A stretch of DNA of 64,000 nt from an uncultured Gammaproteobacteria bacterium (lineage in GTDB: Bacteria > Pseudomonadota > Gammaproteobacteria > Arenicellales > JAANXG01), in the NCBI GenBank assembly GCA_947259875.1, contig CAMYNX010000001.1:13755-77754 (forward strand). The letters are read 5' to 3'. The notes beneath the pieces were generated by a model. It did not search any database. It was not told the origin of the DNA and saw nothing but the letters and a program-made list of their open reading frames with translations. Made by a program: the position numbers and the translations under genes. Below, one piece after another: positions 17,522-47,512 of the stretch (position 1 is its first letter; each line of letters begins with the position of its first letter).

Positions 17522-18919
17522 ATGAAGAGCTTTTCGAGGTCTACGATGAACAGAAGAACACTCCTGGGGATCCTGATATCGATTGCTACACTACCATGTG
17601 TGGTCCAGGCGGAATTTGGCACCGATATTCACGTTCAATCCGATAGCGACCCAATTCGTCTGGACATTGATCGAAGGACTTTTGACGAAATCAAATCGTT
17701 TTTGAAGCAAGGCTATCCCACGGTATCGGTGATGCTGCATGCTGTTTCGTTGGGCATGTCCATTAACGATGTTGTTTATCTTGCAGTCAAATCCAATCCC
17801 CAACGTGCAAAGGAACTCTATGATACCGCGGTGTCATTGTTACCCTCGTTGCCAGGCTGGGCTATACAGGATGAGGACAGTTCAGATCGCTACTATACCA
17901 ATTACACTGCAAGTGAACTCGGTGCGCAATCTACGGTTACCGAGGTGGCGCGGCGCTTTTTCGAAGAGAGCATGCGTCTTGCCCCATTTCCGGAATGGTA
18001 TGCCGGCGGTTATCACATCAAGGTATCGACCGATGAGTTAGCGGGGCTACTCAAGGATAGTTGGTGGTACCGGCAGGGAAACTTACAACCCAACTCCCCG
18101 CGCAGTGCTCCGAATCGTCCAATCTTTATTTCCCTATATGGGGACCGCAATGAAATTGTGATCGATAGCGGTACTGAGCGCATACGTAATGCACAGCAAA
18201 AGGGAGTGCGTGAGCTACCCGTGGTGTTTGTATACAATGACATGCGCACTCGGCCGATCAGCCGCTACAGCGCCGATGTCAAGGTCAAGGGAATCGTCGA
18301 TGATTTCTTCAACCGTGGACTCAAGCTCACCTCCGTCCCGGAATGGCGGCAGGTGGGTGATCATCACATGCTCGCTCCCGTCGCAGAGCTCATGGAACTG
18401 CTCGATACAATAGACAAAAAAGACGTTGACCCGGCCAGATGGTCAGCAATTACCCAGGATATCAGGAACAATGGTTTCAACGCACCACTGTTGGTTTCGT
18501 TACTCAATTCTGGAGACGGACGGATATGGGTCAACCAACCGGATCGCATTACCGCTGCGGCTGAGCTTGGTGTCGGCCAGGTACCGGTGGTGTTTTTGTA
18601 TCACGATCTCGGTCGGCCGCCCTGTGGTCAGCCGATTCGAACAACGGCGCTGATTTGTTCGGCCGCGCTTGCAGCGGGCGCCGATCCAACGATTTGCCAA
18701 CTTCCACCGGGCGCACGTGTGCCAGCACCAGGCTATGTTACGCCCGGTGGCGGCGCAGGTTTTCCGCCGCCGCCACCACCACCCTTACCACCGACGACCA
18801 CGGTGCCGCCACCAACGACAACGATCCCGCCACCGACGACCACGGTGCCGCCACCGCCGACGACAACAATACCACCGCCACCGCCACCCTCGCCAGTGTT
18901 GCCAGGAGGTAACCCTTAG
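17522..18919 (+). CDS. Secreted protein of unknown function: two homologous internal domains plus a C-terminal Pro/Thr-rich low-complexity tail
   Basis: Signal peptide with a twin arginine (MNRRTLLGILISIATLPCVVQA|EF). Internal duplication: aa 144-240 (RRFFEES..PFPEWY..RPIFISLYGD..ELPVVFVYND) versus aa 260-361 (DDFFNRG..SVPEWR..APLLVSLLNSGD..QVPVVFLYHD). The tail is FPPPPPPPLPPTTTVPPPTTTIPPPTTTVPPPPTTTIPPPPPPSP. I recognise no named family. Confidence 0.75.
   Translation: MKSFSRSTMNRRTLLGILISIATLPCVVQAEFGTDIHVQSDSDPIRLDIDRRTFDEIKSFLKQGYPTVSVMLHAVSLGMSINDVVYLAVKSNPQRAKELYDTAVSLLPSLPGWAIQDEDSSDRYYTNYTASELGAQSTVTEVARRFFEESMRLAPFPEWYAGGYHIKVSTDELAGLLKDSWWYRQGNLQPNSPRSAPNRPIFISLYGDRNEIVIDSGTERIRNAQQKGVRELPVVFVYNDMRTRPISRYSADVKVKGIVDDFFNRGLKLTSVPEWRQVGDHHMLAPVAELMELLDTIDKKDVDPARWSAITQDIRNNGFNAPLLVSLLNSGDGRIWVNQPDRITAAAELGVGQVPVVFLYHDLGRPPCGQPIRTTALICSAALAAGADPTICQLPPGARVPAPGYVTPGGGAGFPPPPPPPLPPTTTVPPPTTTIPPPTTTVPPPPTTTIPPPPPPSPVLPGGNP
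18788..18874 (+). repeat. Imperfect in-frame tandem duplication (42 nt + 45 nt) encoding PPTTTVPPPTTTIP-type units
   Basis: The string ccaccgacgaccacggtgccgccacc occurs at 18788 and again at 18830. The units are 42 nt and 45 nt, both multiples of 3, and lie inside the Pro/Thr tail of the 17522..18919 CDS. Confidence 0.85.
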
Positions 18920-18928
18920 GGGCGGACA

Positions 18929-20275
18929 ATGGTGAATCAACAGCGACAACCGGACCACAGCCAACGACGTGACCGGGATTACATTTTGTTGACCCGCCTT
19001 GCGGCGGGTATATCGGCAGCGTTACTAGCGATACCCGGCGCGACTCAGGAAAATGTTTTGGATACACAGGCTCTCCCCGACCAGCAACTGTTGTTTGGCG
19101 TGTCGCCAGCGGCTCAGACGAAGCAGTTGTTAAAGCCGCTGCCTGATGCGTTGCTCGAGGAGTTACTTGGATTGTATGCAGCACTTGGTGTTGGCGCGAA
19201 ATACCACACCAACGTCAGACGTACCCCCGATAATGAAATAAGCGATACCGCATTTGTGATCCAGCCGGAGCTTGCCTATCAAAATGATTTCGGTGGCCGA
19301 CACACAGGTGAAATCATCTATGCGGCAAGTATCGTGCGGCATAATGATCTCGATAATGAAGACACGACCAACCAAAGCCTGAATGGTGCCTTGCGTTTTG
19401 ACCTGACCCCGATACTCGATGTACGTGTGTTCGGACAATACAACGACGGTTTCGAGGAGCGCGGTGCATCTGGGTCCAGGACATTCATCGATAATGAACC
19501 AGACGAAATCGAGACCGTCACTTACGGTGGCGAAGTCATCTTTGGCCGTACGACGCAGAAATTTCAAGTTTCAGTGGGCGCCAGCAAATCTGAATCGAGA
19601 TATCAGAACAATAATCAGGAATTTCGCGATCGTGATTATGAACGTGTTCACGGGATATTGTTTTACAACGTCGCACCGAAGACCCATTTGTTTTTAGAGA
19701 CTAATCACACCGAGATTGATTACCCGCGACAATTCAGAAATCTAAATAGTGAAGAAGATTCCTATTATGCCGGTGTACGTTGGCGTGCATCGGAAATGAT
19801 AGAGGCGCTAGCCAAGGTTGGGCGCCTCGAAAAGGACATGGCCGATCCGGCCGTGCAAGACTTCGATGGCACGAGCTATTTGGGGAGATTCGTTTGGAGA
19901 CCGAAACCCTATAGCCGATTCGAGCTTTATGGGTCCCGAACCACCGAGGAAACTGCGCAGCAGGAATTTGATGCATCGGGGCCTGGCTTTTTTGTCAGCG
20001 AATTGATCGGTTTGAACTGGACACACGATTTTACTTCGACGTGGCAAGCATACGCATATTTTAATCACATCGATGATGATCATCCGGATGATCGACTAGA
20101 TACGATCAAAGACTACGGTGTCGGGCTCACCTACAGAATAAACAACTGGTTAAACGTATCTGCGCAGTATGGCGAAGTGGAGCGAGACTCCAACGAACCC
20201 ACGGTCGAGTATGAAGACCAGATAACATCGCTCTTTTTACGGGGCGATTTTAAAATGGGCACTGGGGCTCACTAG
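18929..20275 (+). CDS. Predicted outer-membrane beta-barrel protein of polysaccharide-export loci
   Basis: Signal-like segment LLTRLAAGISAALLAIPGATQ; the true start may be an internal TTG. Alternating-hydrophobic strands run throughout. The C-terminal barrel-closing region YGVGLTYRINNWLNVSAQY...ITSLFLRGDF (barrel-type aromatic, 9 residues before the stop) is present. It starts 9 nt after the preceding gene and lies just upstream of the OPX gene. Confidence 0.7.
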   Translation: MVNQQRQPDHSQRRDRDYILLTRLAAGISAALLAIPGATQENVLDTQALPDQQLLFGVSPAAQTKQLLKPLPDALLEELLGLYAALGVGAKYHTNVRRTPDNEISDTAFVIQPELAYQNDFGGRHTGEIIYAASIVRHNDLDNEDTTNQSLNGALRFDLTPILDVRVFGQYNDGFEERGASGSRTFIDNEPDEIETVTYGGEVIFGRTTQKFQVSVGASKSESRYQNNNQEFRDRDYERVHGILFYNVAPKTHLFLETNHTEIDYPRQFRNLNSEEDSYYAGVRWRASEMIEALAKVGRLEKDMADPAVQDFDGTSYLGRFVWRPKPYSRFELYGSRTTEETAQQEFDASGPGFFVSELIGLNWTHDFTSTWQAYAYFNHIDDDHPDDRLDTIKDYGVGLTYRINNWLNVSAQYGEVERDSNEPTVEYEDQITSLFLRGDFKMGTGAH

Positions 20276-20330
20276 AATGGTCCCTGGGCAGTGGGACTCA
20301 GATTAGTTTATCTTTACATCCCACATCATT

Positions 20331-21236
20331 ATGTATAAGTGGCTAGTATTATTGAGTGGGCTGACGTCAAGTTTTTCGGTGGTTACCAGCCTGCAAGCCG
20401 GCAATCTAGATGTTCCCTTCGATTTAGAATACCGGGTAGACGGACAAGTACAATCCGTCGCCGTCACCAAGCACCCCACCGCTGCTATTACGTCGAGCAT
20501 GATTGTAAGAGCGGCACCCGGCGCACACCGGGCCCTACGGGAATATCTGATCTCGCCGGGTGATATCATATCTGTAAGGGTGTTTGGTGAACCGGACTTG
20601 AGTTTGAGCAGCGTTAGAGTGCCAACTGACGGCCTTATCTCCTATCCGTTGCTCGGTCAGATTCGCATCAATGACCATACCGTGCGATCTCTCGAGCAAC
20701 GACTGACAGCGTTGTTAGGTAATGGCTTCTTGCGAAAACCTAAGGTGTCTGTGTCAATCGTCGAATATCGTCCGATATTTGTAAAAGGTGGTGTTAATTC
20801 GCCGGGCGCCCATGATTACGCGGAAGGACTGACCGTGGAAAAAGCGCTTGCGTTAGCCGGTGGTATGTCGAAGGAGGGAAGAGTGGAAGGTATCACTGTG
20901 CTCCGGGACAACGGTCGGTCCCAGGTCGTAAGCCTTGAATACTGGATATTGCCAGGCGACGTCATATCGATTCCCGAAGTGACCGAGATTGACATCAAGG
21001 AGTTCATTTATTTGCACGGCGAAGTAAAGAGCCCGGGAAGTTACGAATACAGAAAAGGTTTGACGGTCGAAAAGGCATTAGCGTTAGCCGGTGGTTTTAG
21101 CAATCGTGCCTCAAAACGAAAAATCCAGATATCTCGCGAAAGCGAAGGCGGTGATTTTGTTCGGCTAAAAAAGGTGGGACTGCATTTCACGGTCAAACCC
21201 GGCGATGTTATTACAGTGGGAGCAAGTTTGTTTTAG
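20331..21236 (+). CDS. Short periplasmic OPX (Wza-like polysaccharide export) protein
   Basis: Poly_export-type motif YLISPGDIISVRVFGEPDLS...DGLISYPLLGQI. Two SLBB-like repeats each contain GLTVEKALALAGG (aa 166-178 and 243-255). The signal peptide has no lipobox Cys. The protein ends right after the second repeat, so there is no Wza-type C-terminal OM helix. Confidence 0.88.
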   Translation: MYKWLVLLSGLTSSFSVVTSLQAGNLDVPFDLEYRVDGQVQSVAVTKHPTAAITSSMIVRAAPGAHRALREYLISPGDIISVRVFGEPDLSLSSVRVPTDGLISYPLLGQIRINDHTVRSLEQRLTALLGNGFLRKPKVSVSIVEYRPIFVKGGVNSPGAHDYAEGLTVEKALALAGGMSKEGRVEGITVLRDNGRSQVVSLEYWILPGDVISIPEVTEIDIKEFIYLHGEVKSPGSYEYRKGLTVEKALALAGGFSNRASKRKIQISRESEGGDFVRLKKVGLHFTVKPGDVITVGASLF

Positions 21237-23335
21237 TGGACTCGAGTTCGAATTTAAAACTTCAGACAGTTAAAACAGGGGACGATAATCGTGCGCCGTC
21301 GTTCCCTATGATTTTTTCTCAAGCCGATGATCCGCGAATCAACATTGGTGATTACCTAGGTGTTATCAAGCGCTATAAGTGGAGCATTATCGCGATGGCT
21401 TTATTGGGAGCCATTATAGGTGGTCTCAAGGCGATGTCCGGCGTGCCTGTTTACCGTGCAACCGTAACGATGGTGGTCGAACCGGATTTTTCTTCTTTGG
21501 CTTCCGCGAACCAAGGTGCGGTAGTCTATGCGACGGCGTGGCGTTTTTACGAGACGCAATATGATCTGCTGCGTAGCCGGGCCGTGGCGGAGCGCGTCGT
21601 CAAAAAGATGGATCTTGTGAATCTTGGTGGACCTAAGCCGCGTGTTACTTTTTCTATCATAGATGAAATAAAAAAGCTTGTTATTTCTCACACCGAGGAT
21701 AATTCTGAGCGCAATGAAATTAAACGACCCTTGACCGCCCAACAAGAAAAAGCAAAACGCGAAGCATTGTCCACTTTGATACAAGGAGGTGTAAGTGTTC
21801 GTGGGGGAGATAAAAGTCAACTTGTATATGTTTCGTTTGATTCTGTAGACCCGAAATTCTCGTCTGATGTCGCTAATTCATTAGTTCATTCCTACATAGA
21901 GCTAGAGTTGGAATCGCGCCTCAATCGTGCCAAACGCGCTAGTAATTGGTTGACTGAACGGTTAAACGACCTACGTGAAAAGCTTGCGTTGTCGGAACAG
22001 AAATTACAGGAGTTTCAGTCGCGAGAGGGAATGATCGACCTAAAGAGCATTGAACAACTCACAAGTAACGAATTGGGTATGTTGAATCAGGAATTTCTTA
22101 CCGCAAAAACTAAGTATTCAGAACTAGCTAAACGATACGGTCCGAAGCATCCTAAAATGCTAGCAGCCCTAGCTGAACTGGATGCCACCAAGCGGCGGTT
22201 GTCGGAGGCCTCGAGGCGCGTTGTCGATACCCGCACCAAGGAGTTTGCGTTAGCGGAATTAGAGCGCGAGGTGAGTGCAAATCGAGAACTCTATGATGTG
22301 TTTTTGAACAAGTTCCGGGAGACCGATTTATCGGTGGATAATCAACTCAGCAGCGCACGTGTCGTAGATCAGGCGTTACCACCCAAAGCACCGTTCAAGC
22401 CGGACAAAGCACAAATTCTTACGTTATGGGGTCTAATTGGATTCAGTATTGGAGTGTTACTTGCTTTTCTGAGAGATCATTTAGATAACACTTTTAATAA
22501 TATCGAAAAAATCGAGCAACGATTTAATCTCCCAGTACTCGGTGTTATACCTCTCGTGAACTTAAAAGATTTGAAAAGTTTTCAAAAGAATTCTGAGTTT
22601 TCGAAAAGCGATTTTATGGTCGGTCCGGAACGCTATTTCATGAACGAAAAAAGATCTTGGTTTTCCGAATCCGTAAATCATATTCGCACCGGGATTATGT
22701 ATTCAAATGTCGACGATCCGCCGCAGGTCATACTTATTACGTCATCAGTGCAAGCGGAAGGTAAGACGACCTTGGCTACCAATCTTGCTTTATCGCTGGC
22801 GCAAATTGGCGAGACTTTGCTGATCGACGCTGATCTGAGAAAGCCAAGACTCGATAAAATAGCCACAATTGACATCGAAGGCGGGTTGATTGATTTCGTG
22901 GCAGGAAACAAGTCCCTAGACGAAAGCATTAAAACAGATGCTGAATGTCCCCAGCTCTCTATCTTGGGGTGCGGTGTCATTCCTCCCAATCCTTTGGAAC
23001 TGCTTTCATCTAAGAAGATGGAAAATGCGATCAATGTGCTGAAAGATAGTTTTTCTCATATTATCATTGACACCGCCCCGATCTTACCAGTAAGCGATGC
23101 GATAGTCTTGAGCCACATCGTGGATGCAGTGTTGATGGTAATACAATCGGAGCATACGACTCAGAATATGGTGCGCGATGCGTTACGACGCTTGGAGGCA
23201 GCCAATATTTCTCCACTTGGATTCGTCTTGAGCAAAGTAGATTCTAAGAAGACGTCATATTATTACGACGGAAAGTATAGCCATTATTACGGTGGGTATC
23301 AGCAACAAGAAGCACTCGTTAAAAGAGCGTCTTAA
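21236..23335 (+). CDS. Polysaccharide co-polymerase (PCP-2a) / tyrosine autokinase, Wzc-like
   Basis: GTG start overlaps the OPX stop (TAGTG). N-terminal Wzz-type domain with two TM segments and a long coiled-coil. C-terminal kinase with Walker A SSVQAEGKTTLATNLA, A' LLIDADLRKP and B IIIDTAPILPVSDA. Tyr cluster SYYYDGKYSHYYGGY at the C-terminus. Confidence 0.92.
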   Translation: MDSSSNLKLQTVKTGDDNRAPSFPMIFSQADDPRINIGDYLGVIKRYKWSIIAMALLGAIIGGLKAMSGVPVYRATVTMVVEPDFSSLASANQGAVVYATAWRFYETQYDLLRSRAVAERVVKKMDLVNLGGPKPRVTFSIIDEIKKLVISHTEDNSERNEIKRPLTAQQEKAKREALSTLIQGGVSVRGGDKSQLVYVSFDSVDPKFSSDVANSLVHSYIELELESRLNRAKRASNWLTERLNDLREKLALSEQKLQEFQSREGMIDLKSIEQLTSNELGMLNQEFLTAKTKYSELAKRYGPKHPKMLAALAELDATKRRLSEASRRVVDTRTKEFALAELEREVSANRELYDVFLNKFRETDLSVDNQLSSARVVDQALPPKAPFKPDKAQILTLWGLIGFSIGVLLAFLRDHLDNTFNNIEKIEQRFNLPVLGVIPLVNLKDLKSFQKNSEFSKSDFMVGPERYFMNEKRSWFSESVNHIRTGIMYSNVDDPPQVILITSSVQAEGKTTLATNLALSLAQIGETLLIDADLRKPRLDKIATIDIEGGLIDFVAGNKSLDESIKTDAECPQLSILGCGVIPPNPLELLSSKKMENAINVLKDSFSHIIIDTAPILPVSDAIVLSHIVDAVLMVIQSEHTTQNMVRDALRRLEAANISPLGFVLSKVDSKKTSYYYDGKYSHYYGGYQQQEALVKRAS

Positions 23336-23373: not shown

Positions 23374-24069
23374 TTGTCCCGTACAATCAGCTTCACTGTC
23401 TTCACTGTGACAGCTATCTTGTTGTCTTGGTGTTTGATCTCGACGTTGGTTAACCGGGTTGTGAATACCTCCGGACAATATGTAACAGACCTTGACAACA
23501 GAGGTTGGATCGAAGACATAAACCACTGGTTCTCGACCGTAAATCGGCTGGAGACCGCTCTATCCTGGAATCCCCTGGATGTAGACCTGTTGATGCGGTT
23601 GGCTCGACTGTATCGGTGGCGCGCATTTGACCAAAGGTTATCTCCGAAACTAGCTAGGGAATCTCACCATCTAGCCATTCGATATGTAAAAGCCGCATGC
23701 CGCAGACGTCCATCATCGGGTTTGGCATGGGCTACCTTGGCAGTTGTAAAAGCTGCGGCGGGCCATATAGATCAGGAAATGATTTTGGCCTTAAATAGGG
23801 CCATGGCATTGGGTCCATGGGAACGGCAGGTTCAACACCAAGTTGTCTTGGCCGGTATTCAAACTTGGAATCGCTTGCCCACGAATACCCAACATCGCAT
23901 GCTCGAAATAGTCGACAGAGCACTCAAGGATTCAACACTCTCCAGAATCGTAATTGAGACCGCGATAAGACATAACTGGCAAGCTCCTCTAGAACCGTTA
24001 TTACAAAATAATCAGAGACTGAAGCGGTTATTCAAGAGCATTGACGTCGAATATAAGAAAGAACACTAG
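23374..24069 (+). CDS. N-terminally anchored helical-repeat (TPR-like) protein, function unknown
   Basis: TTG start. One TM segment (FTVFTVTAILLSWCLISTLV), then helical repeats such as SGLAWATLAVVKAAAGHIDQEMILALNRAMALGPWE. It is located between the kinase and the ligase-family gene. Confidence 0.55.
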   Translation: MSRTISFTVFTVTAILLSWCLISTLVNRVVNTSGQYVTDLDNRGWIEDINHWFSTVNRLETALSWNPLDVDLLMRLARLYRWRAFDQRLSPKLARESHHLAIRYVKAACRRRPSSGLAWATLAVVKAAAGHIDQEMILALNRAMALGPWERQVQHQVVLAGIQTWNRLPTNTQHRMLEIVDRALKDSTLSRIVIETAIRHNWQAPLEPLLQNNQRLKRLFKSIDVEYKKEH

Positions 24070-24082
24070 CGTGTTACAGACC

Positions 24083-25498
24083 ATGGCAAGATCGGTCAAC
24101 TTAATTTGTTATGTGTTGCTGCTGGTATTAATTGTCTGGTTACCGATCCCGCTGGGTAGCAGAAACGAATGGTCGACACAATTCATGGAGATCGTGTCGT
24201 TGACAATATTACTGATGTGGCTTGTTTCAAACAGCGTTACGCAATCGAAAGCATCATTAAAACTTCAGTCGGTTCGAGTTATATTGCTATTCATGGCATT
24301 GTGGTTGTGTTATCAACTATTTCAAGTTATGCCGCTACCCGAATTATTCATAAAGTTCCTCTCTCCGAGAACTTTTACTCTGTATAACCTCTCAGTGCCC
24401 GAAGCGGACCAAGCTTGGGCTTATGCGGTGAGTTTGGATCGTGATACCAGTCTTGAAGAAACTCTAAAGTACAGCGCATACGTTGCGATGTTTTTTCTAA
24501 TATTCGTTCTGATAGATACACGTCAACGATTAATTATTCTCGCGTATACAATCTTTTCAGTTGGATTGGCGCAATCTGTGTTTGGTATTTACGCCATGTT
24601 CACGGATCTATACTTAATACCTAAGGAAACAATGGACGGCCATCGATGGGTAATTGGAACTTTTGTAAACCGTAATCATTATGCTGCACATATTGTTATG
24701 ACCATTGGTATCGGGCTCGGATTACTATATTCGCAACCTACCTCATCAAGATCCTGGTCGAACACGCGAAATATTGTTTTAAACATAACAGACATGTTGC
24801 TAGGTAAAACTGGCTGGGTATTTATCTGCCTAGTTGTGCTTTTTTCGGCATTATTTTTAAGCCAGTCACGAGGTGGTGTGATTTCATTCATTGGCGCCTT
24901 CTTGTTCGTAACGATCGTGACGTTCAGTATTAAGGCGCGGAAAGATCGGGGTTATAAAATTGTTATTACGACCGGACTTATTATAGTTTTGTCAGTAGCG
25001 TGGTTAGGCCTCGGTGGCCTAACAAAAAGATTTGAAAAACTTGGAGAAGATGAACGATGGGAACAATGGAGGCTAACAACCTATATAATAAAGGATTACC
25101 CACTATTTGGAGTAGGAAGTGGGAATTATCGCTGGGTCTTTCCTAACTACCGCGAAGGCACGTTACGGCAATTGACTTATGATCATGCACATCAAGATTA
25201 TATGGAACTTTTGTCGGAACAAGGTGTAGTAGGAGCCCTCATATTAGGGATTGCTTTTCTTTTAATTATAAAGATGCTGTTGAAATCATACCGCACCCAA
25301 AATCACTTGTTGGGACGTGGCATGATATTCGGCTCTTTGATATCAATAACCGCATTTATGATACACGGTTTAGTCGACTTCAATTCTCGAATTCCTGCGA
25401 ATGCCGCTTACTTCTATGTAATTGCGGCTTTGGGACTGGCGGCGACAACGTTAAACAACAAAATTGGAAAAAAGCATCGCTATGAGAGCAACAAATAG
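24083..25498 (+). CDS. O-antigen ligase family (Wzy_C domain) polytopic membrane protein: WaaL, Wzy or PglL-type
   Basis: At least 10 hydrophobic segments. [15 protein letters not shown], then a large loop and [27 protein letters not shown], typical of the Wzy_C family. The track start is TTG 24041, inside the previous gene. GTG 24071 or ATG 24083 is more likely. Confidence 0.85.
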
Positions 25499-29285: not shown

Positions 29286-29293
29286 AACACGCG

Positions 29294-38424: not shown

Positions 38425-38695
38425 ACGTCGGCACTACTCCTCAGATGCAGACCGCATTTTCTTGCATGCCAAACTCGTAAGTTGAAAGAGTCCGTAATAC
38501 GAAAAAACTATGTGGTCGTACGTGTACGCTATTTTGAATGGCCATAGATTAAAAGACACATATAAGTCTGATATATCCATAGATAGTGTCCTTTGTTATT
38601 TTGAGATGCTTGGATAAACTAATTCGCCAGTGGCTAATCACAGCCAGGTATTTCGTTAATCAGTTGCTGGTCACGGGAGGAAAGACTTTTTCGGT

Positions 38696-39610: not shown

Positions 39611-41022
39611 CAGCGTCTATCCTAGTTGCCTTAATATTATTTATATTATGTTTCAACAGCATACGGGCAACTGTTTTTATTGTTATAGCGGTAGGGATTA
39701 TCCAGGATCCAATCAGAAAGCTCGTACCTGAAGAACCTGTCTTTTTTGTTGTTATAGTGGGTATTTTTTTTGCTACAGGCATGATTGGTGCAATGCTTCG
39801 AAATGGTACGCGTTACTTCGCTCCATTATCTGGTATTAACAACCTTTTGTATTATCCGATAGTGTCGTTTTTAATTATTTTATTGATACAAACGTTCGCC
39901 ACAATCGTGCGTTATGATCAGGTCGTTTTGGCTATTGTTGGATTGAGTGGATATTTGGCGCCATTGTTAGCGTTGCCACTTGCGTATTCTTACGTGAATA
40001 CGCTAGAGGACATAAAAAGACTTCTCGCAGTGTATATTGGTTTTAATTGTTTTGTAGCATTGGGGGTATATCTTTCGTTTTTGGGTGTTGATTGGGCAAT
40101 TCTCCAACAGGTTGGGCAAGGTATTGTCATTTATGATTTAGGCACTGTATTAACAGCGCATTCTGGATTTGCGAGGAGTGCAGAAATCGCCGCTTGGCAT
40201 ATGGCGGCAAGCGTCTGCATGTTGGGAACACTTAGTGCTATAACGAATAAAACGTCTCAAAGATTGTGGTTTGCTTTTCTTATAGTGATTATGGTGGGCG
40301 GCATTGTTCTGACAGGACGGCGTAAAATGCTGATGGAAATATCTATATTTGTTTTCTTCTATTTTTCAATTTTAATATTTACTCGGACAACTGGAACAAA
40401 AGTTTTTGTGGGAACTTTGATATTAGGATTAGGACTTATGATTTGGTTAGGCCTACAAGAGATATTCCCGGAAAAATATGAAAGTCAGATTGACCTATAT
40501 CTGCAACGAGGTGCAACTGTTTTTGAGGATGCACCGCAACGTTTTTCAAATCTAGGGTTTGGAAGCTTACAAAGTGCATTACAGCGAGTTGGATGGTTGG
40601 GTGCTGGAATGGGGATAGGAAGTCAGGGAGCGCGCTATTTTAGCGACGTGTCTTTTATCTCGGTCATAGGCGGGTCGACGGAAGGTGGTCTAGGAAAACT
40701 TATCGTAGAGTTAGGTATACCGGGTCTTGCCCTTTTATTATGGTTGCTATGGCGAATCAATCAAAATATATCCAAGATATTGCAGTATTGTAATGTAGTC
40801 GACAAGACAGCAGCACATTTGGGCGTGGCTATATCGGCATTTCTTGTCACAAACATCTTCATATTTGTAGTGGCATCGCAAGTGTATGGAGACTTGTTCA
40901 TATTACTGCTGCTGGGGATGTTTGTAGGAATATTATTCGCTACGCCTAAAATCTTCGCTTCCAGGCGCTCGTACGTTGACGTTGAGGAAGGCACACAGAA
41001 ATACGCAAACCCGGTAACGTGA
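39604..41022 (+). CDS. Polytopic membrane protein, Wzy-like polymerase / O-antigen-ligase-like
   Basis: About 11-12 hydrophobic segments. LTGRRKMLMEI, then a large loop (PEKYESQIDLYLQRG...GWLGAGMGIGSQGARYF) and GGLGKLIVELGIPGLALLLWLL. This resembles Wzy/Wzy_C architecture rather than a Wzx flippase. Confidence 0.65.
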   Translation: MLAASILVALILFILCFNSIRATVFIVIAVGIIQDPIRKLVPEEPVFFVVIVGIFFATGMIGAMLRNGTRYFAPLSGINNLLYYPIVSFLIILLIQTFATIVRYDQVVLAIVGLSGYLAPLLALPLAYSYVNTLEDIKRLLAVYIGFNCFVALGVYLSFLGVDWAILQQVGQGIVIYDLGTVLTAHSGFARSAEIAAWHMAASVCMLGTLSAITNKTSQRLWFAFLIVIMVGGIVLTGRRKMLMEISIFVFFYFSILIFTRTTGTKVFVGTLILGLGLMIWLGLQEIFPEKYESQIDLYLQRGATVFEDAPQRFSNLGFGSLQSALQRVGWLGAGMGIGSQGARYFSDVSFISVIGGSTEGGLGKLIVELGIPGLALLLWLLWRINQNISKILQYCNVVDKTAAHLGVAISAFLVTNIFIFVVASQVYGDLFILLLLGMFVGILFATPKIFASRRSYVDVEEGTQKYANPVT

Positions 41023-42197
41023 GCAAAAGCCGACCACGTATTAATCTGGGAATTATCGCAACTCATCCTATTCAGTACCAGGCACCATGGTTTCGAGCGC
41101 TATCTGAGATTAGCAAGATACAGCTCAAGATCTATTATATTGTCATTCCAGATGACCGTCAGCAAGGGCAAGGTTTCAATCATGCGTTTGAGTGGGATGT
41201 TCCTCTATTGGACGGTTACGGCTGGTCAGTACTGAAGCCGAGCGGAACGAATAATTTGTCTCGCTTTTTTTCTACTAGAATAAACAAGTTAGGAGAGACC
41301 CTTCGAAAAGACAAAATAAATGTTTGTTTGATCACCGGATGGCAGTCATATGGATTATTACAAGCTCTTTTTTCTTGTAAAATATTAGGTATACGAACCT
41401 TGATAAGAGGAGAGTCGAACGCCATTCGTATACGACCTCTCTGGAAAAAACTTTTGCACCGTATTTATTTAAACCAATTCGATGCATTTTTAGCAGTCGG
41501 AATAGAAAACAAAAACTTTTATATAGAAAACGGAATCGAACTAACTCGAATATTTTGGTGCCCTTACTTCGTTGATAATGCGAGATTTATTAGACAAGCC
41601 GAAGTAGCAATCGGGAAAAGACAAGAGATTCGAAAAAGTTGGGGAATTATAGAAAAGGAAATATGTTTCGTTTTTGCAGGAAAATTTGAACAAAAAAAGC
41701 GCCTATCAGACATAATCAAAGCACTAAAAATAGCGCGACAAAAAAATCAAAGTATACGCTTGCTGGTTGTTGGTTCTGGAGAACAAGAAAGACAAGTCCG
41801 TCAGCTAGCGGTTAGTAACTCTTCTCCAGTCTCTTTTGCGGGATTTCTTAATCAAACAAAGATTAGTGACGCATACGTTGCTGCAGATTGTTTGATATTA
41901 GCTTCGGATTATGAAGAAACATGGGGCTTGGTCGTTAACGAAGCTATGGCTAGTGGCATACCGGCACTGGTTAGCGATCAAGTCGGTTGTGGTGCAGATT
42001 TAGTTATAGATGAGAAAACTGGATCAATATTTCGTTGTGGAGACATACAGGACTTATCGCAAAAGATGATATGGATGGCTGACAATCGCGATAAGTTGAA
42101 GCAAATGGGAACCAACGCGCGTAAACATATTGAGAATTACTCAATAAAAAGTGCCACTAAGGGGTTACTCGACGCAATGAAGGTTTTAAGCACCTAA
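41019..42197 (+). CDS. Glycosyltransferase, GT4 family
   Basis: GTG start overlaps the previous stop. C-terminal ILASDYEETWGLVVNEAMASGIPALVSDQVG. Confidence 0.85.
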   Translation: MSKSRPRINLGIIATHPIQYQAPWFRALSEISKIQLKIYYIVIPDDRQQGQGFNHAFEWDVPLLDGYGWSVLKPSGTNNLSRFFSTRINKLGETLRKDKINVCLITGWQSYGLLQALFSCKILGIRTLIRGESNAIRIRPLWKKLLHRIYLNQFDAFLAVGIENKNFYIENGIELTRIFWCPYFVDNARFIRQAEVAIGKRQEIRKSWGIIEKEICFVFAGKFEQKKRLSDIIKALKIARQKNQSIRLLVVGSGEQERQVRQLAVSNSSPVSFAGFLNQTKISDAYVAADCLILASDYEETWGLVVNEAMASGIPALVSDQVGCGADLVIDEKTGSIFRCGDIQDLSQKMIWMADNRDKLKQMGTNARKHIENYSIKSATKGLLDAMKVLST

Positions 42198-42352
42198 TAG
42201 TAAATGCAAAGTATGTAACACCTAGTATGAGACGACGTTCATTGTTTATATTGTTTTGCAGCCGTATCATGCGCGACGATTAAATACGATACACGGATTG
42301 ATTGGCAAAGATTTCGCCTAATAGTGTCGTTGTTTGTATTCATTGAATAATA

Positions 42353-43537
42353 ATGAGAATACTTCATGTAGTACCGACATACCTTCCTGCTACACGATAT
42401 GGAGGTCCAATTTATGCGATTCATGGATTATGTAGATCATTGGTCGAAGCAGGCGCGAAAGTATCTGTATTCACCACAAATGTGGATGGCGCCTCAGTCT
42501 CAAATGTCGAGACCAATTCTTGTGTCGATATGGATGGTGTTGAAGTCACATACTTTGCGTCTCCTTACTTAAAACGATTGTATTACTCACCTAACATGAA
42601 GTTGGCGTTGAAAAATACAATCGATGGTTTTGATTTAGTTCATGGTCATTCGATTTATCTATGGCCTACGATGTTGGCAGCCAGAACTTGTCGCAGCACA
42701 AGGACTCCGTATGTGTTATCACCTCGAGGAATGCTCGTTAAAGACCTCGTAGCAAAAAGAAACCAATTAATAAAGTCGATTTGGATAAAATTGGTTGAGC
42801 GAAACAATATTTCGATAGCAAACGCTGTTCATTTTACCTCGCTAACAGAATATAAAGCCGCTAAAAGATTCAATCTAAATATAAAAACGTCGTTTGTTAT
42901 TCCCAACGGCATTGATATAGACGACGTAGATAAATTTAAAAACCAGAAACAATATAAAAAACTCCAGAGAAAAGATATGCCGTTAATTCTGTATTTTGGG
43001 AGAATCAGCTGGAAGAAGGGGCTTGATCGACTTATCAAATCGATGACGTTGGTAACAAGAGGAAAACTTGTCATCGCTGGTAACGATGAAGAAGGCTATA
43101 CGTCGAAATTAAAGCGTCTGGTTCGACAATATGGGTTGAATGACAAGATTGAATTCAAAGGTCCTCGATATGGCACGGACAGGTATTCGTTGTTTTTGGG
43201 TGCCGACATATTTGTATTACCCTCTCTCTCCGAAAATTTCGGTAATACAGTTTTGGAGGCAATGGCACTTGGCTGCCCGGTTATCGTAACATCCCAGGTG
43301 GGCCTGTCTTCGAAAGTAGAACAATCCAAGGCGGGGATCGTTGTCAATGGTGAACCTGAAAGTATCGCTGACGGCATAAATAGGTTAGCCGATGATCAGA
43401 CGACAGCAAAACAAATGGGAGAAAATGGAAGCAGGACTGCGCGGAATGAATTTTCGTGGAAACTCATCGCTGATCAGATGTTCGAGAAATATCAGAGTGT
43501 GATCATGTCGAGCGTGAACGATGACACGTGTAGATAA
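42353..43537 (+). CDS. Glycosyltransferase, GT4 family
   Basis: MRILHVVPTYLPATRYGGPI at the N-terminus. C-terminal VLPSLSENFGNTVLEAMALGCPVIVTSQVG. Confidence 0.88.
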   Translation: MRILHVVPTYLPATRYGGPIYAIHGLCRSLVEAGAKVSVFTTNVDGASVSNVETNSCVDMDGVEVTYFASPYLKRLYYSPNMKLALKNTIDGFDLVHGHSIYLWPTMLAARTCRSTRTPYVLSPRGMLVKDLVAKRNQLIKSIWIKLVERNNISIANAVHFTSLTEYKAAKRFNLNIKTSFVIPNGIDIDDVDKFKNQKQYKKLQRKDMPLILYFGRISWKKGLDRLIKSMTLVTRGKLVIAGNDEEGYTSKLKRLVRQYGLNDKIEFKGPRYGTDRYSLFLGADIFVLPSLSENFGNTVLEAMALGCPVIVTSQVGLSSKVEQSKAGIVVNGEPESIADGINRLADDQTTAKQMGENGSRTARNEFSWKLIADQMFEKYQSVIMSSVNDDTCR

Positions 43538-44366
43538 CGTGTCAGTCTTGGTTTTTACTTTAAACGAAGAAAAAAACCTCCCCTCGTGCCTGGATAGTTT
43601 GCAATGGACTGACGATGTTGTAGTCGTTGACTCTTACAGCACGGATAGCACATTGAAAATCTGTGAAAAACGCGATGTGCGCGTATATCAACATCGATTC
43701 GAAGGTTTTGGTTCACAGCGCAACTGGGCGCTAGATAACATCGACCGAAAATACTCGTGGGTCCTGTTACTTGACGCCGATGAGCGAATATCCAGTAAAT
43801 TGGCTGACGAGATAGTAACTAAAGTATCTGAAGGTGATGGAAGAATTTGTGCTTATCGTCTGAAAAGGAGATTTTTTCTGTGGGGAAAATGGCTGAAACA
43901 CAGCAGCCTTTATCCGACTTGGGTGGTTCGCTTGATACAAGGTGACAAGGTACGTTACGTAAATCGTGGTCACGCTGAAACGCAAATCGTGAACGGTGAA
44001 ATCGGTGTTCTGCAAAACGATATCATTGATGAAAACCGTAAAGGAATCGATTCGTGGTTCGAAAGACAGAATGATTACTCGCGAAGAGAAGCGGAGTACG
44101 AAATTGAACAGCAAAGAGAACCATTTCATTTTTCGAATATCTTTGCACGAGATCCAGTACTACGAAGGGCAGCCATAAAGCGGTTAACGTGGACGCTTCC
44201 CGGGCGTGCGGTATGGTACTTCTTTTACAGCTATATATGGCGGGGAGGTTTTCTTGATGGCGGGGAGGGATTGAGATATTGCCTAATGCGATCCATGTAC
44301 CAGCGAATGATAGCAATTAAAAAATATGATCTCGCTAAAAACTTGAAAAGCTTTAATGGTCTTTGA
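43521..44366 (+). CDS. Glycosyltransferase, GT2 family (LPS-core WaaE/KdtX-like type)
   Basis: VSVLVFTLNEEKNLPSCLDSL...VVVVDSYSTDST...LLLDADE (DXD). Confidence 0.8.
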   Translation: MTRVDNVSVLVFTLNEEKNLPSCLDSLQWTDDVVVVDSYSTDSTLKICEKRDVRVYQHRFEGFGSQRNWALDNIDRKYSWVLLLDADERISSKLADEIVTKVSEGDGRICAYRLKRRFFLWGKWLKHSSLYPTWVVRLIQGDKVRYVNRGHAETQIVNGEIGVLQNDIIDENRKGIDSWFERQNDYSRREAEYEIEQQREPFHFSNIFARDPVLRRAAIKRLTWTLPGRAVWYFFYSYIWRGGFLDGGEGLRYCLMRSMYQRMIAIKKYDLAKNLKSFNGL

Positions 44367-44463
44367 TTGACAACTCTATAGAAAGAATACTTAAAGCATT
44401 TTCTCAAACTGAAATATTTATTTACCGTTCGGCGTTCTCTATTGACAACTAGACGAATCCGTT

Positions 44464-46209
44464 ATGTATATAGTTGGACTAAATTCCTATCACGGAGATT
44501 CATCGGCTTGCCTGGTAAAAGATGGTCGGTTAGTCGCCGCAGCAGAAGAGGAGAGATTTCGAAGACTTAAGCATTGGGCCGGATTTCCCGCCGAAGCGAT
44601 TCGCTACTGCTTGTCGGAAGAGCAAATTAAACTTGACGAAGTTGATCATGTGGCGGTCAATAGCAATGCATATGCCAATTTTTGGCCGAAACTTCGTTAC
44701 GCGTTTTCGGGCGGTGCAAGCTGGTCTTTATTGTTTGAGAAAATTCAAACCCGAAAACGACGTCACGCACTGCGCGAACGCTTGGAAACCACCTTTCCAG
44801 GCCAGCTTCTTAACGGCAAGATGCATCGTATCGAGCATCATTTGGCGCACTTGGCGTCTAGTTTTTTTGTTTCGCCTTTTGACACAGCAGTAACAGTATC
44901 CGTGGACGGATTCGGCGATTTTAGTAGTACCAGTTGGGGCGTGGGGGAGGGACAGCATATCCATATCGGCGGCCGCGTGAGTTTTCCACATTCACTGGGC
45001 GTATTTTATCAAGCCATGACTCAGTATTTGGGGTTTTCGCGATATGGTGATGAATACAAGGTCATGGGACTGGCCGCATACAGTAAACCAGATTATCTCG
45101 ACGCTATGAGGGAGATTATCAGATTGAATGGCAAGGGAACCTTTTCTCTTGATTTACGATTTTTCCGGCATCAAAAGCACGAAATTGGATATCAATGGGT
45201 CGATAGCGAGCCGCAGGTTTCCCGCTTGTTTAGCCATGAAATGACGACACTTCTCGGACCTGCGAGACGCGCGAATAGCCCTATCGAGCAACGTCATAAA
45301 GCCGTAGCGAGTTCAGTACAAGCCGTATATGAGGAAGCTTTGTTTCATCTGCTCAATAATATTCATTCCCAATATAGTATGAATAAACTGACATTGGCCG
45401 GAGGCTGCGCAATGAATTCAGTCGCTAACGGCAAGATCAGGGGCAAGACGAAATTTCGAGATATTTATATTCAGCCTGCCGCTGGCGATGCCGGTGGCGC
45501 GATTGGAGCGGCATTCGTAGCCTGGCATAGATTGAACCGGCAAGATACTAAATTTTTCATGGAACACGCATACTGGGGGCCGTCATATTCCGACGAAGAT
45601 ATTCATCATTTGCTGGACCAACAAAGAAATAGGCTGTTGGCTGAGGATATCAGGATAGAGCAAGCGGAACACGAGGATAAACTTTGTAGCCGCGTGGTGG
45701 AATCAATAGCAGAAGGTAAGGTAGTTGGTTGGTTCCAGGGCCGAATGGAATGGGGTCCCCGAGCATTAGGCAATAGATCTATTTTATGTGATCCCAGAAG
45801 GGCGGATATGAAAGACATTCTTAACGACAGGATAAAACGACGAGAATCTTTCAGACCTTTTTCTCCTGCGGTTCTCAGGGAGGCAGTAAAGGATTGGTTT
45901 GAAGTAGACGATGATGTACCGTTTATGATGAAAGTGTATCCGATACGAGCAGAAAAAAGAAAGCAGATTCCCGCTGTAACTCATATAGATGGTTCTGGCA
46001 GGCTGCAAACCGTATATCAACATACCAACCCACGATTTTATAGACTGATTGAGTGTTTCGCGTTAAGAACCGGTATTCCGCTGGTACTTAACACATCATT
46101 CAATGAGAACGAACCCATCGTGTGTAAGCCGGAAGAAGCTTTGGATTGTTTTTTGAGGACCAATATGGACATGTTGGTCATGGGGAACTACGTTATTTCA
46201 AGAGCTTGA
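44464..46209 (+). CDS. Carbamoyltransferase, NodU/CmcH family
   Basis: MYIVGLNSYHGDSSACLVKDGRLVAAAEEERFRRLKH, LAGGCAMNSVANG and C-terminal GPRALGNRSILCDPR...TSFNENEPIV. Confidence 0.92.
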   Translation: MYIVGLNSYHGDSSACLVKDGRLVAAAEEERFRRLKHWAGFPAEAIRYCLSEEQIKLDEVDHVAVNSNAYANFWPKLRYAFSGGASWSLLFEKIQTRKRRHALRERLETTFPGQLLNGKMHRIEHHLAHLASSFFVSPFDTAVTVSVDGFGDFSSTSWGVGEGQHIHIGGRVSFPHSLGVFYQAMTQYLGFSRYGDEYKVMGLAAYSKPDYLDAMREIIRLNGKGTFSLDLRFFRHQKHEIGYQWVDSEPQVSRLFSHEMTTLLGPARRANSPIEQRHKAVASSVQAVYEEALFHLLNNIHSQYSMNKLTLAGGCAMNSVANGKIRGKTKFRDIYIQPAAGDAGGAIGAAFVAWHRLNRQDTKFFMEHAYWGPSYSDEDIHHLLDQQRNRLLAEDIRIEQAEHEDKLCSRVVESIAEGKVVGWFQGRMEWGPRALGNRSILCDPRRADMKDILNDRIKRRESFRPFSPAVLREAVKDWFEVDDDVPFMMKVYPIRAEKRKQIPAVTHIDGSGRLQTVYQHTNPRFYRLIECFALRTGIPLVLNTSFNENEPIVCKPEEALDCFLRTNMDMLVMGNYVISRA

Positions 46210-46245
46210 GAGTTTTGGAGAATTCAACAGGAGTATAGGTTAAAC

Positions 46246-46398
46246 ATGATAGAGTTCTTAAAAGACCTTTGGGACTTTATGAGGGCACGAAAGAAATTTT
46301 GGCTTGCACCCATAATTATCGTATTGCTGTTGCTAGGTGCACTTTTGGTATTTGCCCAAGGGTCGGCAATGGCGCCGTTTATTTACACGTTATTTTAA
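46246..46398 (+). CDS. DUF5989-family small membrane protein (50 aa), below the ORF-track length cut-off
   Basis: My translation is MIEFLKDLWDFMRARKKFWLAPIIIVLLLLGALLVFAQGSAMAPFIYTLF. AGGAG lies about 10 nt upstream of the ATG. The ...RKKFWL-TM-...APFIYTLF pattern and the position right after a carbamoyltransferase match what I recall of DUF5989. Confidence 0.8.
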   Translation: MIEFLKDLWDFMRARKKFWLAPIIIVLLLLGALLVFAQGSAMAPFIYTLF

Positions 46399-46431
46399 GT
46401 GCTTCAATAATAATATCCTGAGTGATAGATT

Positions 46432-46465
46432 GCGCTCCGCATAAACGCGGGGCGCTTGTTTTTTT
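46432..46465 (+). terminator. Rho-independent terminator-like hairpin plus T-tract
   Basis: GCGCTCCGC (46432-46440), loop ATAAAC, GCGGGGCGC (46447-46455). This gives a 9-bp stem with one G-U pair, followed by TTGTTTTTTT (46456-46465). Confidence 0.75.
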
Positions 46466-47512
46466 ATGGCTTACCTGTTTACGATTCTCACTACGATTGC
46501 GGTAATTGCCTTTTTGATTCCGCGGGCCGAAGAATGGGGATTACTCGATTACCCAGGTGATCATCGCAGACATACAGAAGCGACTCCAGGTATCGGCGGG
46601 ATTGCTATGTTTGCCGGTTCAGTCATCGGTATAGCTTGGTATGGTCCTAATTGGTCGTTAACGGTGCCGCTATTGGTATCGGGTGGGTTTATGCTGGCCA
46701 TAGGTATTTGGGACGATCGCCACAAAACTACTTACCTCTTCAGGTTCATTGGGCAACTAATCGCGGCTACGATAATGATCAAAGCTGGTGGTGTGGTACT
46801 AGACGATCTCGGGCATCTGATTTCAGATCAACGGTTACCCTTGAATCGCTGGTCCGTTGCGTTGACGCTTTTCGGTACGGTGGGAGTGATTAATGCATTG
46901 AACATGTCGGATGGCATGGATGGTCTTGCGGGTGGCCTGGCCTTGGTAACACTGTTGTCCTTGACGATAGTTGCTGGTGTTACCGGTAATATTCAGGATG
47001 CTAATGTTTTAGTGATCATAGCGTGTGCCGTAGTCGCTTTTTTGCTATTCAACGCCCGTATCTTTGGATACCAAAGAGCTCGCGCATTTATGGGTGATGC
47101 GGGCAGTATGTGGTTGGGCCTCACACTATCGTGGTTCTTAATTAACTTGTCACAAGGAGAGGCGCGCGCCATGTCTCCGGTCACGGCACTGTGGGTCATG
47201 GCAGTTCCCTTGATCGATGCCGTAGGTTCTTTGGTAAGGAGGGCGATAAAGGGACGTTCACCGTTTCAAGCTGATCTGGCCCATTATCATCACTATCTAT
47301 TGGCACTCGGTTGGAGCGTCAACCAAACATTGATTATAGCTATTGGATGTGCGCTGGTCCTCGCCACAGTGGGCATTCTTGGTTTGTATATGGATATTCC
47401 TGAGCATGTAATGTTCTTCGGTTTTCTTGGAGCGTTTGTTATCTATTTGGTCGCGATGGAGTTGGCGGATAGAAGAATTACCGCGCGGCGTCGCGTACAA
47501 CCAGAAAAATAG
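46466..47512 (+). CDS. Polyprenyl-phosphate HexNAc-1-phosphate transferase (WecA/WbpL, MraY-like family), initiating enzyme
   Basis: 11 TM-type profile. LDYPGDHRRHTEATPGIGGIAMF, WDDRH, INALNMSDGMDGLAGG and FMGDAGSMWLG. Confidence 0.9.
   Translation: MAYLFTILTTIAVIAFLIPRAEEWGLLDYPGDHRRHTEATPGIGGIAMFAGSVIGIAWYGPNWSLTVPLLVSGGFMLAIGIWDDRHKTTYLFRFIGQLIAATIMIKAGGVVLDDLGHLISDQRLPLNRWSVALTLFGTVGVINALNMSDGMDGLAGGLALVTLLSLTIVAGVTGNIQDANVLVIIACAVVAFLLFNARIFGYQRARAFMGDAGSMWLGLTLSWFLINLSQGEARAMSPVTALWVMAVPLIDAVGSLVRRAIKGRSPFQADLAHYHHYLLALGWSVNQTLIIAIGCALVLATVGILGLYMDIPEHVMFFGFLGAFVIYLVAMELADRRITARRRVQPEK

Follow-up and report, generated by a model that had tools for sequence, protein, structure and literature searches.

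Textbook schemes separate Wzy-dependent from ATP-binding cassette (ABC)-dependent glycan export and place tyrosine kinases of the polysaccharide co-polymerase (PCP) type only with the former. How can one co-directional gene cluster then carry hallmarks of both pathways and no Wzx flippase? The question is raised by a glycan island at positions 17522-47512 of a 64-kb stretch of DNA (the window; positions 13,755 to 77,754 of contig CAMYNX010000001.1, GenBank assembly GCA_947259875.1) from an uncultured gammaproteobacterium, where it lies between serS and yccA. As judged from sequence comparison, the best explanation is that the island encodes one composite glycan pathway built of two old, separately mobile modules.

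The survey of open reading frames (ORFs) gives 24 plus-strand ORFs of at least 100 aa and a 50-aa ORF at 46246-46398 between serS (16042-17322) on the left and the Bax1-I/YccA gene (47564-48238, minus strand) on the right, which agrees with the 25 plus-strand genes of the original prediction made from this DNA. Genes were assigned by Pfam and NCBIfam profile searches with family cut-offs. The searches bear out both sets of hallmarks named in that prediction, the Wzy-type one (OPX (outer-membrane polysaccharide export) protein, PCP-2a kinase, Wzy-like protein, WecA-type initiator) and the ABC-type one (Wzm, and Wzt with a C-terminal extra domain); the upstream BBP2_2 beta-barrel gene (18929-20275) was absent from its list. 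Module A (17.5-25.5 kb), the export head, has the order barrel-OPX-PCP-TPR-Wzy_C, where TPR stands for a tetratricopeptide-repeat protein. Module B (about 25.4-47.5 kb) comprises AsnB, Wzm-Wzt, glycosyltransferases (GTs), the 472-aa membrane protein mem472 and a carbamoyltransferase. Ten glycosyltransferases are counted in the island by Pfam, and the WecA-like enzyme, located at the far end from the head, is its sole initiator. The island was compared with four metagenome-assembled genomes (MAGs) of uncultured Gammaproteobacteria (GCA_945787105, GCA_947258975, GCA_947259175 and GCA_947258495), called the relatives below, not every contig of which spans both island ends, and with 80 loci found in a metagenome scan with the mem472 alignment, 33 of which are at least 9 kb long (the long loci). 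The genes of the island are the following:

17522-18919, plus strand: secreted protein of unknown family, 465 aa, with a signal peptide; first gene of the island
18929-20275, plus strand: outer-membrane beta-barrel protein BBP2_2, EpsL-like (PF10082, 115.5 bits; EpsL model TIGR03014, 57.7 bits, far below cut-off)
20331-21236, plus strand: short OPX protein, 301 aa (PF02563 Poly_export and two SLBB domains)
21236-23335, plus strand: PCP-2a co-polymerase with a BY-kinase domain, Wzc-like, 699 aa (Wzz, GNVR and P-loop kinase domains)
23374-24069, plus strand: VpsP-like or weak-TPR protein, 231 aa (NF038257, 51.6 bits, cut-off 125; weak TPR_19; one N-terminal hydrophobic segment)
24041-25498, plus strand: WaaL-fold membrane protein of the Pfam Wzy_C family, 12 helices (PF04932, 68.6 bits)
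25464-26465, plus strand: UDP-glucuronate decarboxylase (UDP-xylose synthase, UXS) of the SDR family (phmmer E 2.5e-120 to UXS1 2b69)
26462-27442, plus strand: UDP-glucose 4-epimerase GalE (TIGR01179, 438.6 bits, above the cut-off of 262.3)
27450-29285, plus strand: AsnB-type glutamine amidotransferase, probably for sugar amidation (Asn_synthase and GATase domains; TIGR01536, 372 bits)
29225-30478, plus strand: GT4 glycosyltransferase (PF00534)
30725-31582, plus strand: Wzm, ABC-2 permease (PF01061, 84 bits)
31612-32907, plus strand: Wzt ATPase, 431 aa, with a C-terminal domain of ~170 aa (PF00005, 76.8 bits)
32952-33743, plus strand: candidate chain-end modification enzyme with a weak FkbM-type methyltransferase signal (PF05050, E 3.6e-4, below cut-off)
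33857-39610, plus strand: five glycosyltransferases, GT4b, GT2a, GT2b, GT2c and GT2d (Pfam)
39604-41022, plus strand: mem472, WaaL-fold membrane protein, 472 aa (profile-profile and fold comparison)
41019-44366, plus strand: three glycosyltransferases, GT4c, GT4d and GT2e (Pfam)
44464-46209, plus strand: NodU/CmcH-type O-carbamoyltransferase (PF02543 and PF16861)
46246-46398, plus strand: single-pass membrane ORF, 50 aa, DUF5989-like (equivalents in the relatives L002 and L003 carry PF19451)
46466-47512, plus strand: WecA-like polyprenyl-phosphate HexNAc-1-P transferase (PF00953, 112 bits; TIGR02380, 263 bits, below the equivalog cut-off of 326)

The island is an old resident of its site and not a recently swapped serotype cassette, since the whole of it is syntenic in the four relatives. 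The order ftsK-lolA-crcB-DUF190-serS, island, yccA is the same in all four MAGs, with identities of 71–84% for serS and 45–85% for the genes of the head. No empty serS-yccA junction was found among the relatives.

The head is organized around a pore. The OPX protein consists of Poly_export and SLBB domains only, without Wza_C, GfcC or a lipobox. Three relatives and metagenome locus L087 share its C-terminus, DVITVGASLF, unchanged, and the final ...ASLF is invariant. The beta-barrel gene is situated 56 bp upstream of the OPX gene and adjoins it in the relatives as well as in L087, L121, L167 and L169; the PCP gene overlaps the OPX stop codon. The BBP2_2 barrel is proposed to be the pore partner of the short OPX. 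Translocons of a short OPX and a beta-barrel are an established export route (PMC9601211, PMC9603273, PMC12819527), and WzaB of M. xanthus binds the porin through a Phe-Phe motif at its C-terminus (PMC12819527). In the computational count of Schwabe et al. such couples occur 14 times in ABC-dependent contexts versus 185 times in Wzx/Wzy contexts (PMC9601211). The PCP-2a protein scores 166 bits with TIGR01007 (cut-off 108) and has Walker A (AEGKT), A' (DADLRKP) and B (IIIDTAP) motifs and a Tyr-rich tail (YYYDGKYSHYYGGY); both the motifs and the tail are retained in the relatives. A protein of ~230 aa lies between PCP and Wzy_C in every one of L087, L120, L167 and L169. The head has no initiating transferase, no flippase and one glycosyltransferase only, so it cannot work alone.

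Module B provides the ABC transporter. The nucleotide-binding domain of Wzt ends near residue 265 and has the O-antigen Wzt of A. aeolicus as its best match in the PDB (8dku, E 2.3e-65); Wzm is 58–89% identical in the relatives and 36–63% in eight metagenome loci with the mem472 module. The gene following wzt differs among the relatives: it is FkbM-like in two, a sulfotransferase gene in one (L003/L085) and a class-I S-adenosylmethionine methyltransferase gene in one (L086). Where it switches enzyme class, the C-terminal part of Wzt retains 19–20% identity and the nucleotide-binding domain 56–63%. This co-variation of the C-terminal domain with the neighbouring modification enzyme supports the view that Wzt behaves as a cap-reading transporter whose C-terminal domain would read the chain-end group. 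The C-terminal domain of Wzt from E. coli O9a reads a chain-end modification, according to the references cited in PMC2943079. The sulfotransferase gene (1849-2949 in L003, 19627-20727 in L085) is accompanied by an unrelated Wzt C-terminal domain, and its presence suggests a sulfated instead of a methylated chain end in that organism. Judged by the enzymes of the module, the glycan itself probably contains xylose and is amidated and carbamoylated; the features expected of it are xylose, an amidated uronic acid, O-carbamoyl and an O-methyl group at the terminus. UXS is 70–74% identical in L007, L087 and L105; this level spans very distant contigs, including a Nitrospirota MAG, and is far above that of any other module gene. 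When genome contigs were searched with the AsnB-like protein, most matches were unrelated paralogues and just one was a close relative.

The original prediction of two Wzy_C/WaaL-like membrane proteins is upheld, for the protein at 24041-25498 by PF04932 (68.6 bits) and for mem472 by profile-profile and fold comparison. The first has the H-x-H-N-D-Y-L-E motif, and the alignment of its family has R339, H384 and D386 invariant; the profile of this alignment matches WaaL (7tpg, 2.6e-9) and an oligosaccharyltransferase (9rmk, 7.4e-8). mem472 matches no Pfam or NCBIfam model even at E≤10, the gathering threshold of PF04932 not being reached, and tblastn against plasmids gave no match. Comparison by hhalign of the alignment of 68 mem472 family members with the Wzy_C-family alignment gives 92.9% probability (E 3.7e-7, 331 columns). 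The AlphaFold2 model of mem472 built on the former alignment (pLDDT 85.3) has WaaL 7tpg as its only significant fold match in the PDB (Foldseek E 3.6e-6, TM 0.53/0.61), and 7 of the 68 members match PF04932 at E≤0.01. By its modelled structure, mem472 is the founder of a WaaL-fold family without a Pfam or NCBIfam model; at E≤1e-30, 456 of 1.84 billion cluster representatives belong to it. Its invariant residues are R38, K39, R191, H199, R239-R240-K241, R313, E360, N417 and D430. The aligned arginines read GRRK in mem472 and SRGG in the Wzy_C family, with R313 near R339 in the periplasmic loop region. With WaaL 7tpg mem472 thus shares the fold and basic residues at positions that correspond in the Wzy_C-family alignment, but it is only 12% identical, has a set of invariant residues peculiar to its family and belongs to no Pfam or NCBIfam family, and the H-x-H-N-D-Y-L-E region reads G-G-A-A-E-G-G-L-G-K. 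Both proteins are candidates for a polymerase, a ligase or an O-oligosaccharyltransferase, roles between which sequence and fold do not separate. A metagenome protein of 596 aa (P0040) has a mem472-like membrane domain fused to an FkbM-type methyltransferase domain (PF05050), which hints at a functional link of the family with methylation.

The predicted absence of a Wzx flippase and of a phosphatase was confirmed for the ORFs of the window and the islands of the four relatives. PF01943, PF13440, PF14667 and PF03023 were without a match among the 24 large island genes (the scan did not include the 50-aa ORF), among the window's other ORFs of at least 120 aa, and among the genes of the four relatives' islands; the same window ORFs and the relatives' islands gave no match to PF01451 (low-molecular-weight protein tyrosine phosphatase) or PHP/CpsB_CapC. 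There is no hidden Wzx in the island. Its intergenic gaps do not exceed 272 bp, and its multi-pass membrane proteins are the Wzy_C protein, Wzm, mem472 and WecA only, each of them assigned. The original prediction had singled out the protein at 39604-41022, mem472, as one that might prove to be a Wzx, and this is ruled out by the WaaL fold, the remote kinship with Wzy_C and the lack of any flippase-family match among the 68 members.

Each of the modules is also widespread without the other, and the metagenome loci show how they recur. Most long loci have the usual order (AsnB)-GT2b-GT2c-...-GT2d-mem472-GT4c-GT4d-GT2e-carbamoyltransferase, with 25–60% identity. AsnB stands beside the mem472 module in 13 of the 80 loci, and the carbamoyltransferase is found in 24 of the 80 with 49–60% identity, directly adjoining mem472 in L087, L105 and L144. 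Wzm and/or Wzt are present in 9 of the 33 long loci (36–64% identity), where the five complete Wzt copies are all long (409–428 aa), and a Wzx-type gene in one (PF13440, L117). Module B appears from this to be natively ABC-dependent. Homologues of OPX and/or PCP-2a occur in five of the 33, on five unrelated contigs with differing orders and orientations. L087 (serS 62% identical) reads serS-barrel-OPX-PCP-TPR-Wzy_C-UXS-mem472-CarbT and L121 reads AsnB-Wzm-Wzt-GTs-mem472...barrel-OPX-PCP; in L149 and L109 OPX-PCP follows module B, and in L120 Wzy_C-TPR-x-PCP follows it on the opposite strand. Genes that stay neighbours through rearrangement are usually taken to be functionally linked, and so the pairing of an ABC module with a capsule-type exporter looks like a real pathway variant. 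The literature search found no described cluster with the gene set of the island.

The head cassette also occurs with other partners in distant lineages, in L167, L168 (Porticoccaceae) and L169 (Magnetococcales). In L167 it is accompanied by a PHPT initiator, a faint Wzx match and a PHP phosphatase domain fused to PCP, and in L168 by a PHP phosphatase, a WecA-like gene and AsnB. In these distant cassettes (L167 6311-9307, L168 1-379) PCP is fused to, or placed beside, a phosphatase of the PHP type (CpsB_CapC), the component missing from the island.

The following order of events can be proposed from the family membership of the enzymes. The WecA-like enzyme would prime undecaprenyl phosphate at the cytoplasmic face, and up to ten glycosyltransferases would lengthen the chain with the use, among others, of UDP-xylose from UXS and of the products of GalE. 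The AsnB-like and NodU-like enzymes may amidate and carbamoylate the glycan, and the post-wzt enzyme would modify, or cap, the chain end. Wzm-Wzt would export the finished lipid-linked chain, its end group being read by the variable C-terminal domain of Wzt; Wzx would be dispensable, as the chain would cross the membrane by way of the ABC transporter. At the periplasmic face mem472 of module B and/or the Wzy_C protein of module A with its TPR partner would take over the glycan linked to undecaprenyl diphosphate (Und-PP) and either pass it to its ultimate acceptor or link blocks to one another. Passage of the product over the periplasm and the outer membrane would then fall to the PCP-2a kinase, the short OPX and the beta-barrel. 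We consider the chances about even that the island encodes one such ABC-fed pathway ending in a composite OPX/barrel translocon. Taken further, the scheme would describe a widespread assembly line in which Wzm-Wzt replaces Wzx and feeds Und-PP-linked, end-capped blocks to mem472 and then to PCP-2a, short OPX and barrel. This extension is tentative and less likely than not; if true, it would add a fourth scheme of wiring to the Wzy-, ABC- and synthase-dependent routes of the textbooks.

Several points weigh against a single pathway. A distance of 10 kb or less to OPX/PCP is seen in only five of the 33 long mem472 loci, and glycan clusters often lie together in any case. PCP-2a kinases are the textbook partners of Wzy-dependent and not of ABC-dependent pathways. 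With ten mostly single-domain glycosyltransferases and a Wzy-like protein, the design recalls that of a block repeat (Wzy-type) more than that of a classic ABC-dependent homopolymer. The C-terminal ~170 aa of Wzt have no Pfam match, PF14524 (Wzt_C) included, and only chance matches in the PDB by phmmer; a homologue search with the C-terminal 179 aa found nothing, and a single-sequence AlphaFold model of Wzt has a pLDDT of 32, by which the fold of this domain is not established. Finally, the genome outside the window may contain a Wzx, a WaaL, a Wzb phosphatase and a further biosynthetic cluster. Genes beyond its limits are relevant because the window opens with the tail of another glycan cluster, as the genes at 53-3322 look like: they encode a WbpM/PglF-like UDP-GlcNAc 4,6-dehydratase (617 aa) and the GDP-mannose pyrophosphorylase/isomerase ManC.

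A rival reading is that of two independent neighbours, namely an ABC-dependent O-antigen cluster (about 25.4-47.5 kb), the product of which would be ligated to lipid A-core by one of the WaaL-fold proteins, and a head of the Wzx/Wzy capsule or exopolysaccharide (EPS) type, the initiator, flippase and glycosyltransferases of which would lie elsewhere in the genome. Capsule loci adjoining ABC-type O-antigen loci are common in enterobacteria (Klebsiella, E. coli O8/O9), and the classical place of PCP-2a kinases is in Wzy-dependent pathways. The probable Wzx and the PHPT initiator of L167 indicate that the natural context of the head can be Wzx/Wzy, and a further glycan cluster ends where the window begins. 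However, this would leave the head an orphan in each of the four relatives, and OPX/PCP would have come to adjoin the mem472 module on five unrelated contigs, one of which, L087, has mem472 and the carbamoyltransferase immediately after the head. Nor does a promoter or terminator signal divide head and tail, though the promoter scan did no better than shuffled sequences and is uninformative overall. Two separate systems are accordingly possible but rather doubtful, and the suggestion of the original prediction that two pathways are wired together has gained comparative support from the orphan-like head and the five contigs without being proven. Protein O-glycosylation fed by the ABC transporter is still less probable. 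By this explanation the TPR and Wzy_C proteins would act as a PglL/WsaB-like oligosaccharyltransferase on Ser/Thr of secreted proteins such as the product of the first island gene, the Pro/Thr-rich C-terminal tail of which (TTTVPPPTTTIPPP...) is retained with varying length in the three relatives that hold this end (61–84% identity). The Wzy_C profile matches 9rmk almost as well as WaaL and the H-x-H-N-D motif is kept; the Geobacillus cluster that holds wzm and wzt has the TPR gene wsaA just upstream of the O-oligosaccharyltransferase gene wsaB, and a Paenibacillus cluster includes an asparagine synthase homologue (PMC2943079). On the other hand, distant lineages have the TPR/Wzy_C pair within a barrel-OPX-PCP cassette, a setting that speaks for polymer export and not for protein modification, the Pro/Thr-rich protein is lacking in L087 and in every other mem472 locus, and the Pfam searches found no PglL-specific domain. 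Such a role could coexist with a single ABC-fed export pathway.

The original prediction also took the AT-rich middle for an exchanged serotype cassette (30.5-46.4 kb) next to a conserved head. The heterogeneity is real and modest: G+C is 42.6% in the tail (30479-46465) against 47.0% in the head, 47.8% in the left flank and 50.8% in the right flank, the 16-kb window of lowest G+C begins at 30001, and G+C at third codon positions parallels this, being lower in the tail. The two single-line counts given with the prediction (21 G+C in 60 nt at 41281-41340 and 41 in 60 nt at 58021-58080) are exact. The relatives also have local replacements or insertions near wzt and before the carbamoyltransferase. 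Yet in the three relatives whose tail was read its genes are orthologous and collinear (46–89% identity), without a sharp identity break at the proposed cassette boundaries, and cassette-like variation is limited to the Wzt C-terminal domain, the post-wzt gene and a few neighbouring genes, inserted or lost. The G+C of the tail follows that of each genome, from 43 to 57%, and lies 3 to 6.5 points under the flanks in three of the four relatives (less than 1 point in the fourth, of which only the first 6 kb of the tail were read); this tracking and the recurrent dip argue for long residence. The survey of ORFs and Pfam matches brought to light no boundary marked by an integrase, a tRNA or a repeat, although no search aimed at tRNA genes and repeats was made. 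A recent import or exchange, which the prediction itself had expected common synteny to refute, is rejected on the strength of that synteny together with the dip in three of four relatives, and we regard it as very improbable. What stands of the cassette idea is modularity, as the modules occur apart in distant lineages; its time-scale does not. On the whole the observation behind the prediction was confirmed and its interpretation in part, with comparative evidence for modularity and wiring and against recent exchange.

Some features of the island and its flanks lie apart from this argument. The first island gene product has no Pfam or NCBIfam match and contains two internal repeats of ~100 aa (Smith-Waterman score 96 versus 25.6±4.6 for shuffled sequences) that share a ...PVVF-Y-D motif; its signal peptide has RR in the window copy and not in the relatives. 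The GT4 ORF at 29225-30478 overlaps the end of AsnB by 60 nt and its counterparts in the relatives have 371–399 aa; its true start is probably downstream of 29225. A few of the glycosyltransferases appear to resemble cyanobacterial Hps enzymes at sub-threshold level only (GT4d: 251 bits with HpsP, cut-off 550, and 245 bits with XYAG1, below cut-off; GT2a: 157 bits with HpsE, cut-off 300). The 50-aa ORF between the carbamoyltransferase gene and wecA seems to travel with the former. Just past yccA, a 14-helix GT-C-like protein with a weak PMT_2 match is encoded at 48627-50405 (minus strand), and the same position is filled in three relatives. Neither it nor the first island gene has a homologue in the 80 mem472 loci, and the GT-C-like protein is therefore probably outside the conserved module. 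An isolated GT2 glycosyltransferase gene is found at 60973-61941, amid central-metabolism genes 13 kb downstream of the island.

A stable and recurrent combination of Wzm-Wzt, two WaaL-fold enzymes, PCP-2a and an OPX/barrel pore suggests that the parts of export pathways are more interchangeable than the schemes imply, and the locus is a concrete, genetically testable case of this. It also draws attention to an unannotated WaaL-fold family, which in most long loci is part of a glycosyltransferase/carbamoyltransferase cassette of environmental bacteria. The mem472 family and the recurrent pairing of ABC with PCP-2a/OPX are the parts most worth following.

Among the known systems, three were rejected by model scores. 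For the Kps capsule (group 2/3) these are 42 bits against a cut-off of 300 (KpsM) and 30 against 437 (BexC/CtrB/KpsE), the OPX being without GfcC or Wza_C; for the XrtA/PEP-CTERM exosortase system, TIGR030xx scores such as 99 against 180, 127 against 231 and 350 against 817, with no exosortase match in the window ORFs; for the VPS system the scores are likewise far below the cut-offs. Among the clusters that bear some likeness, the S-layer O-glycosylation clusters of Geobacillus and Paenibacillus have wzm and wzt with a Wzy_C-type transferase gene preceded by a small TPR gene, and chain-end methylation is proposed there to be read by Wzt (PMC2943079). However, their hosts are Gram-positive and have no OPX, PCP or barrel, the initiator is of the WbaP type and the acceptor is a known S-layer protein.

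With group 1 and group 4 capsules (Wza-Wzb-Wzc; gfc operon) the island shares a PCP-2a autokinase with a C-terminal tyrosine cluster and an OPX. The likeness to group 4 goes further: gfc exports O-antigen units made elsewhere, and the head, likewise a set of export genes with hardly any biosynthetic ones, would depend on the O-antigen-like cluster beside it. The differences are that the island has neither a Wzb/Etp phosphatase nor a Wzx, that its OPX is not Wza-like, and that the neighbouring cluster is ABC-dependent and not Wzy-dependent. Of the marks of the Wzx/Wzy scheme in general, the PCP-2a kinase with its tyrosine cluster is present, whereas Wzx and a cognate phosphatase are missing.

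The composite translocons of M. xanthus (EpsY-EpsX, WzaB-WzpB-WzcB) and V. cholerae (VpsN-VpsM) are closer. Here, too, a short OPX without Wza_C is encoded next to a barrel gene and a PCP gene, the island OPX ends in a conserved hydrophobic residue followed by Phe, and a VpsP-like protein follows the PCP. Both marks of the class-3 OPX type, an OPX without the Wza_C helix and a coupled barrel and PCP, are thus found in the island. In contrast to it, the characterised systems are Wzx/Wzy-dependent with a Wzx of their own; the island OPX is without a lipobox, and the matches of the island to the NCBIfam EpsE, EpsL, EpsY and VpsP models are all far below the cut-offs.

For the inner-membrane part, the ABC-dependent O-antigen pathways are nearest (E. 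coli O8/O9a with Wzm-Wzt and WbdD; A. aeolicus with Wzm-Wzt). Wzm and Wzt are both present in the island, as is WecA-type initiation (PF00953 above cut-off), and cytoplasmic assembly, an ABC-2 permease, a Wzt C-terminal extra domain by a co-varying modifying-enzyme gene and a WaaL-fold protein in the cluster are further likenesses. The island differs in that its Wzt C-terminal domain matches neither Pfam Wzt_C nor any solved chain in sequence, in that it has ten glycosyltransferases instead of a few polymerising ones and two WaaL-fold proteins, and in that it adds a PCP-2a kinase, an OPX and a beta-barrel, none of which is used by the O-antigen pathways. Taken together, as far as the inner membrane the locus appears to resemble an O-polysaccharide pathway of the ABC-dependent kind, and beyond it a class-3 OPX capsule/EPS exporter.

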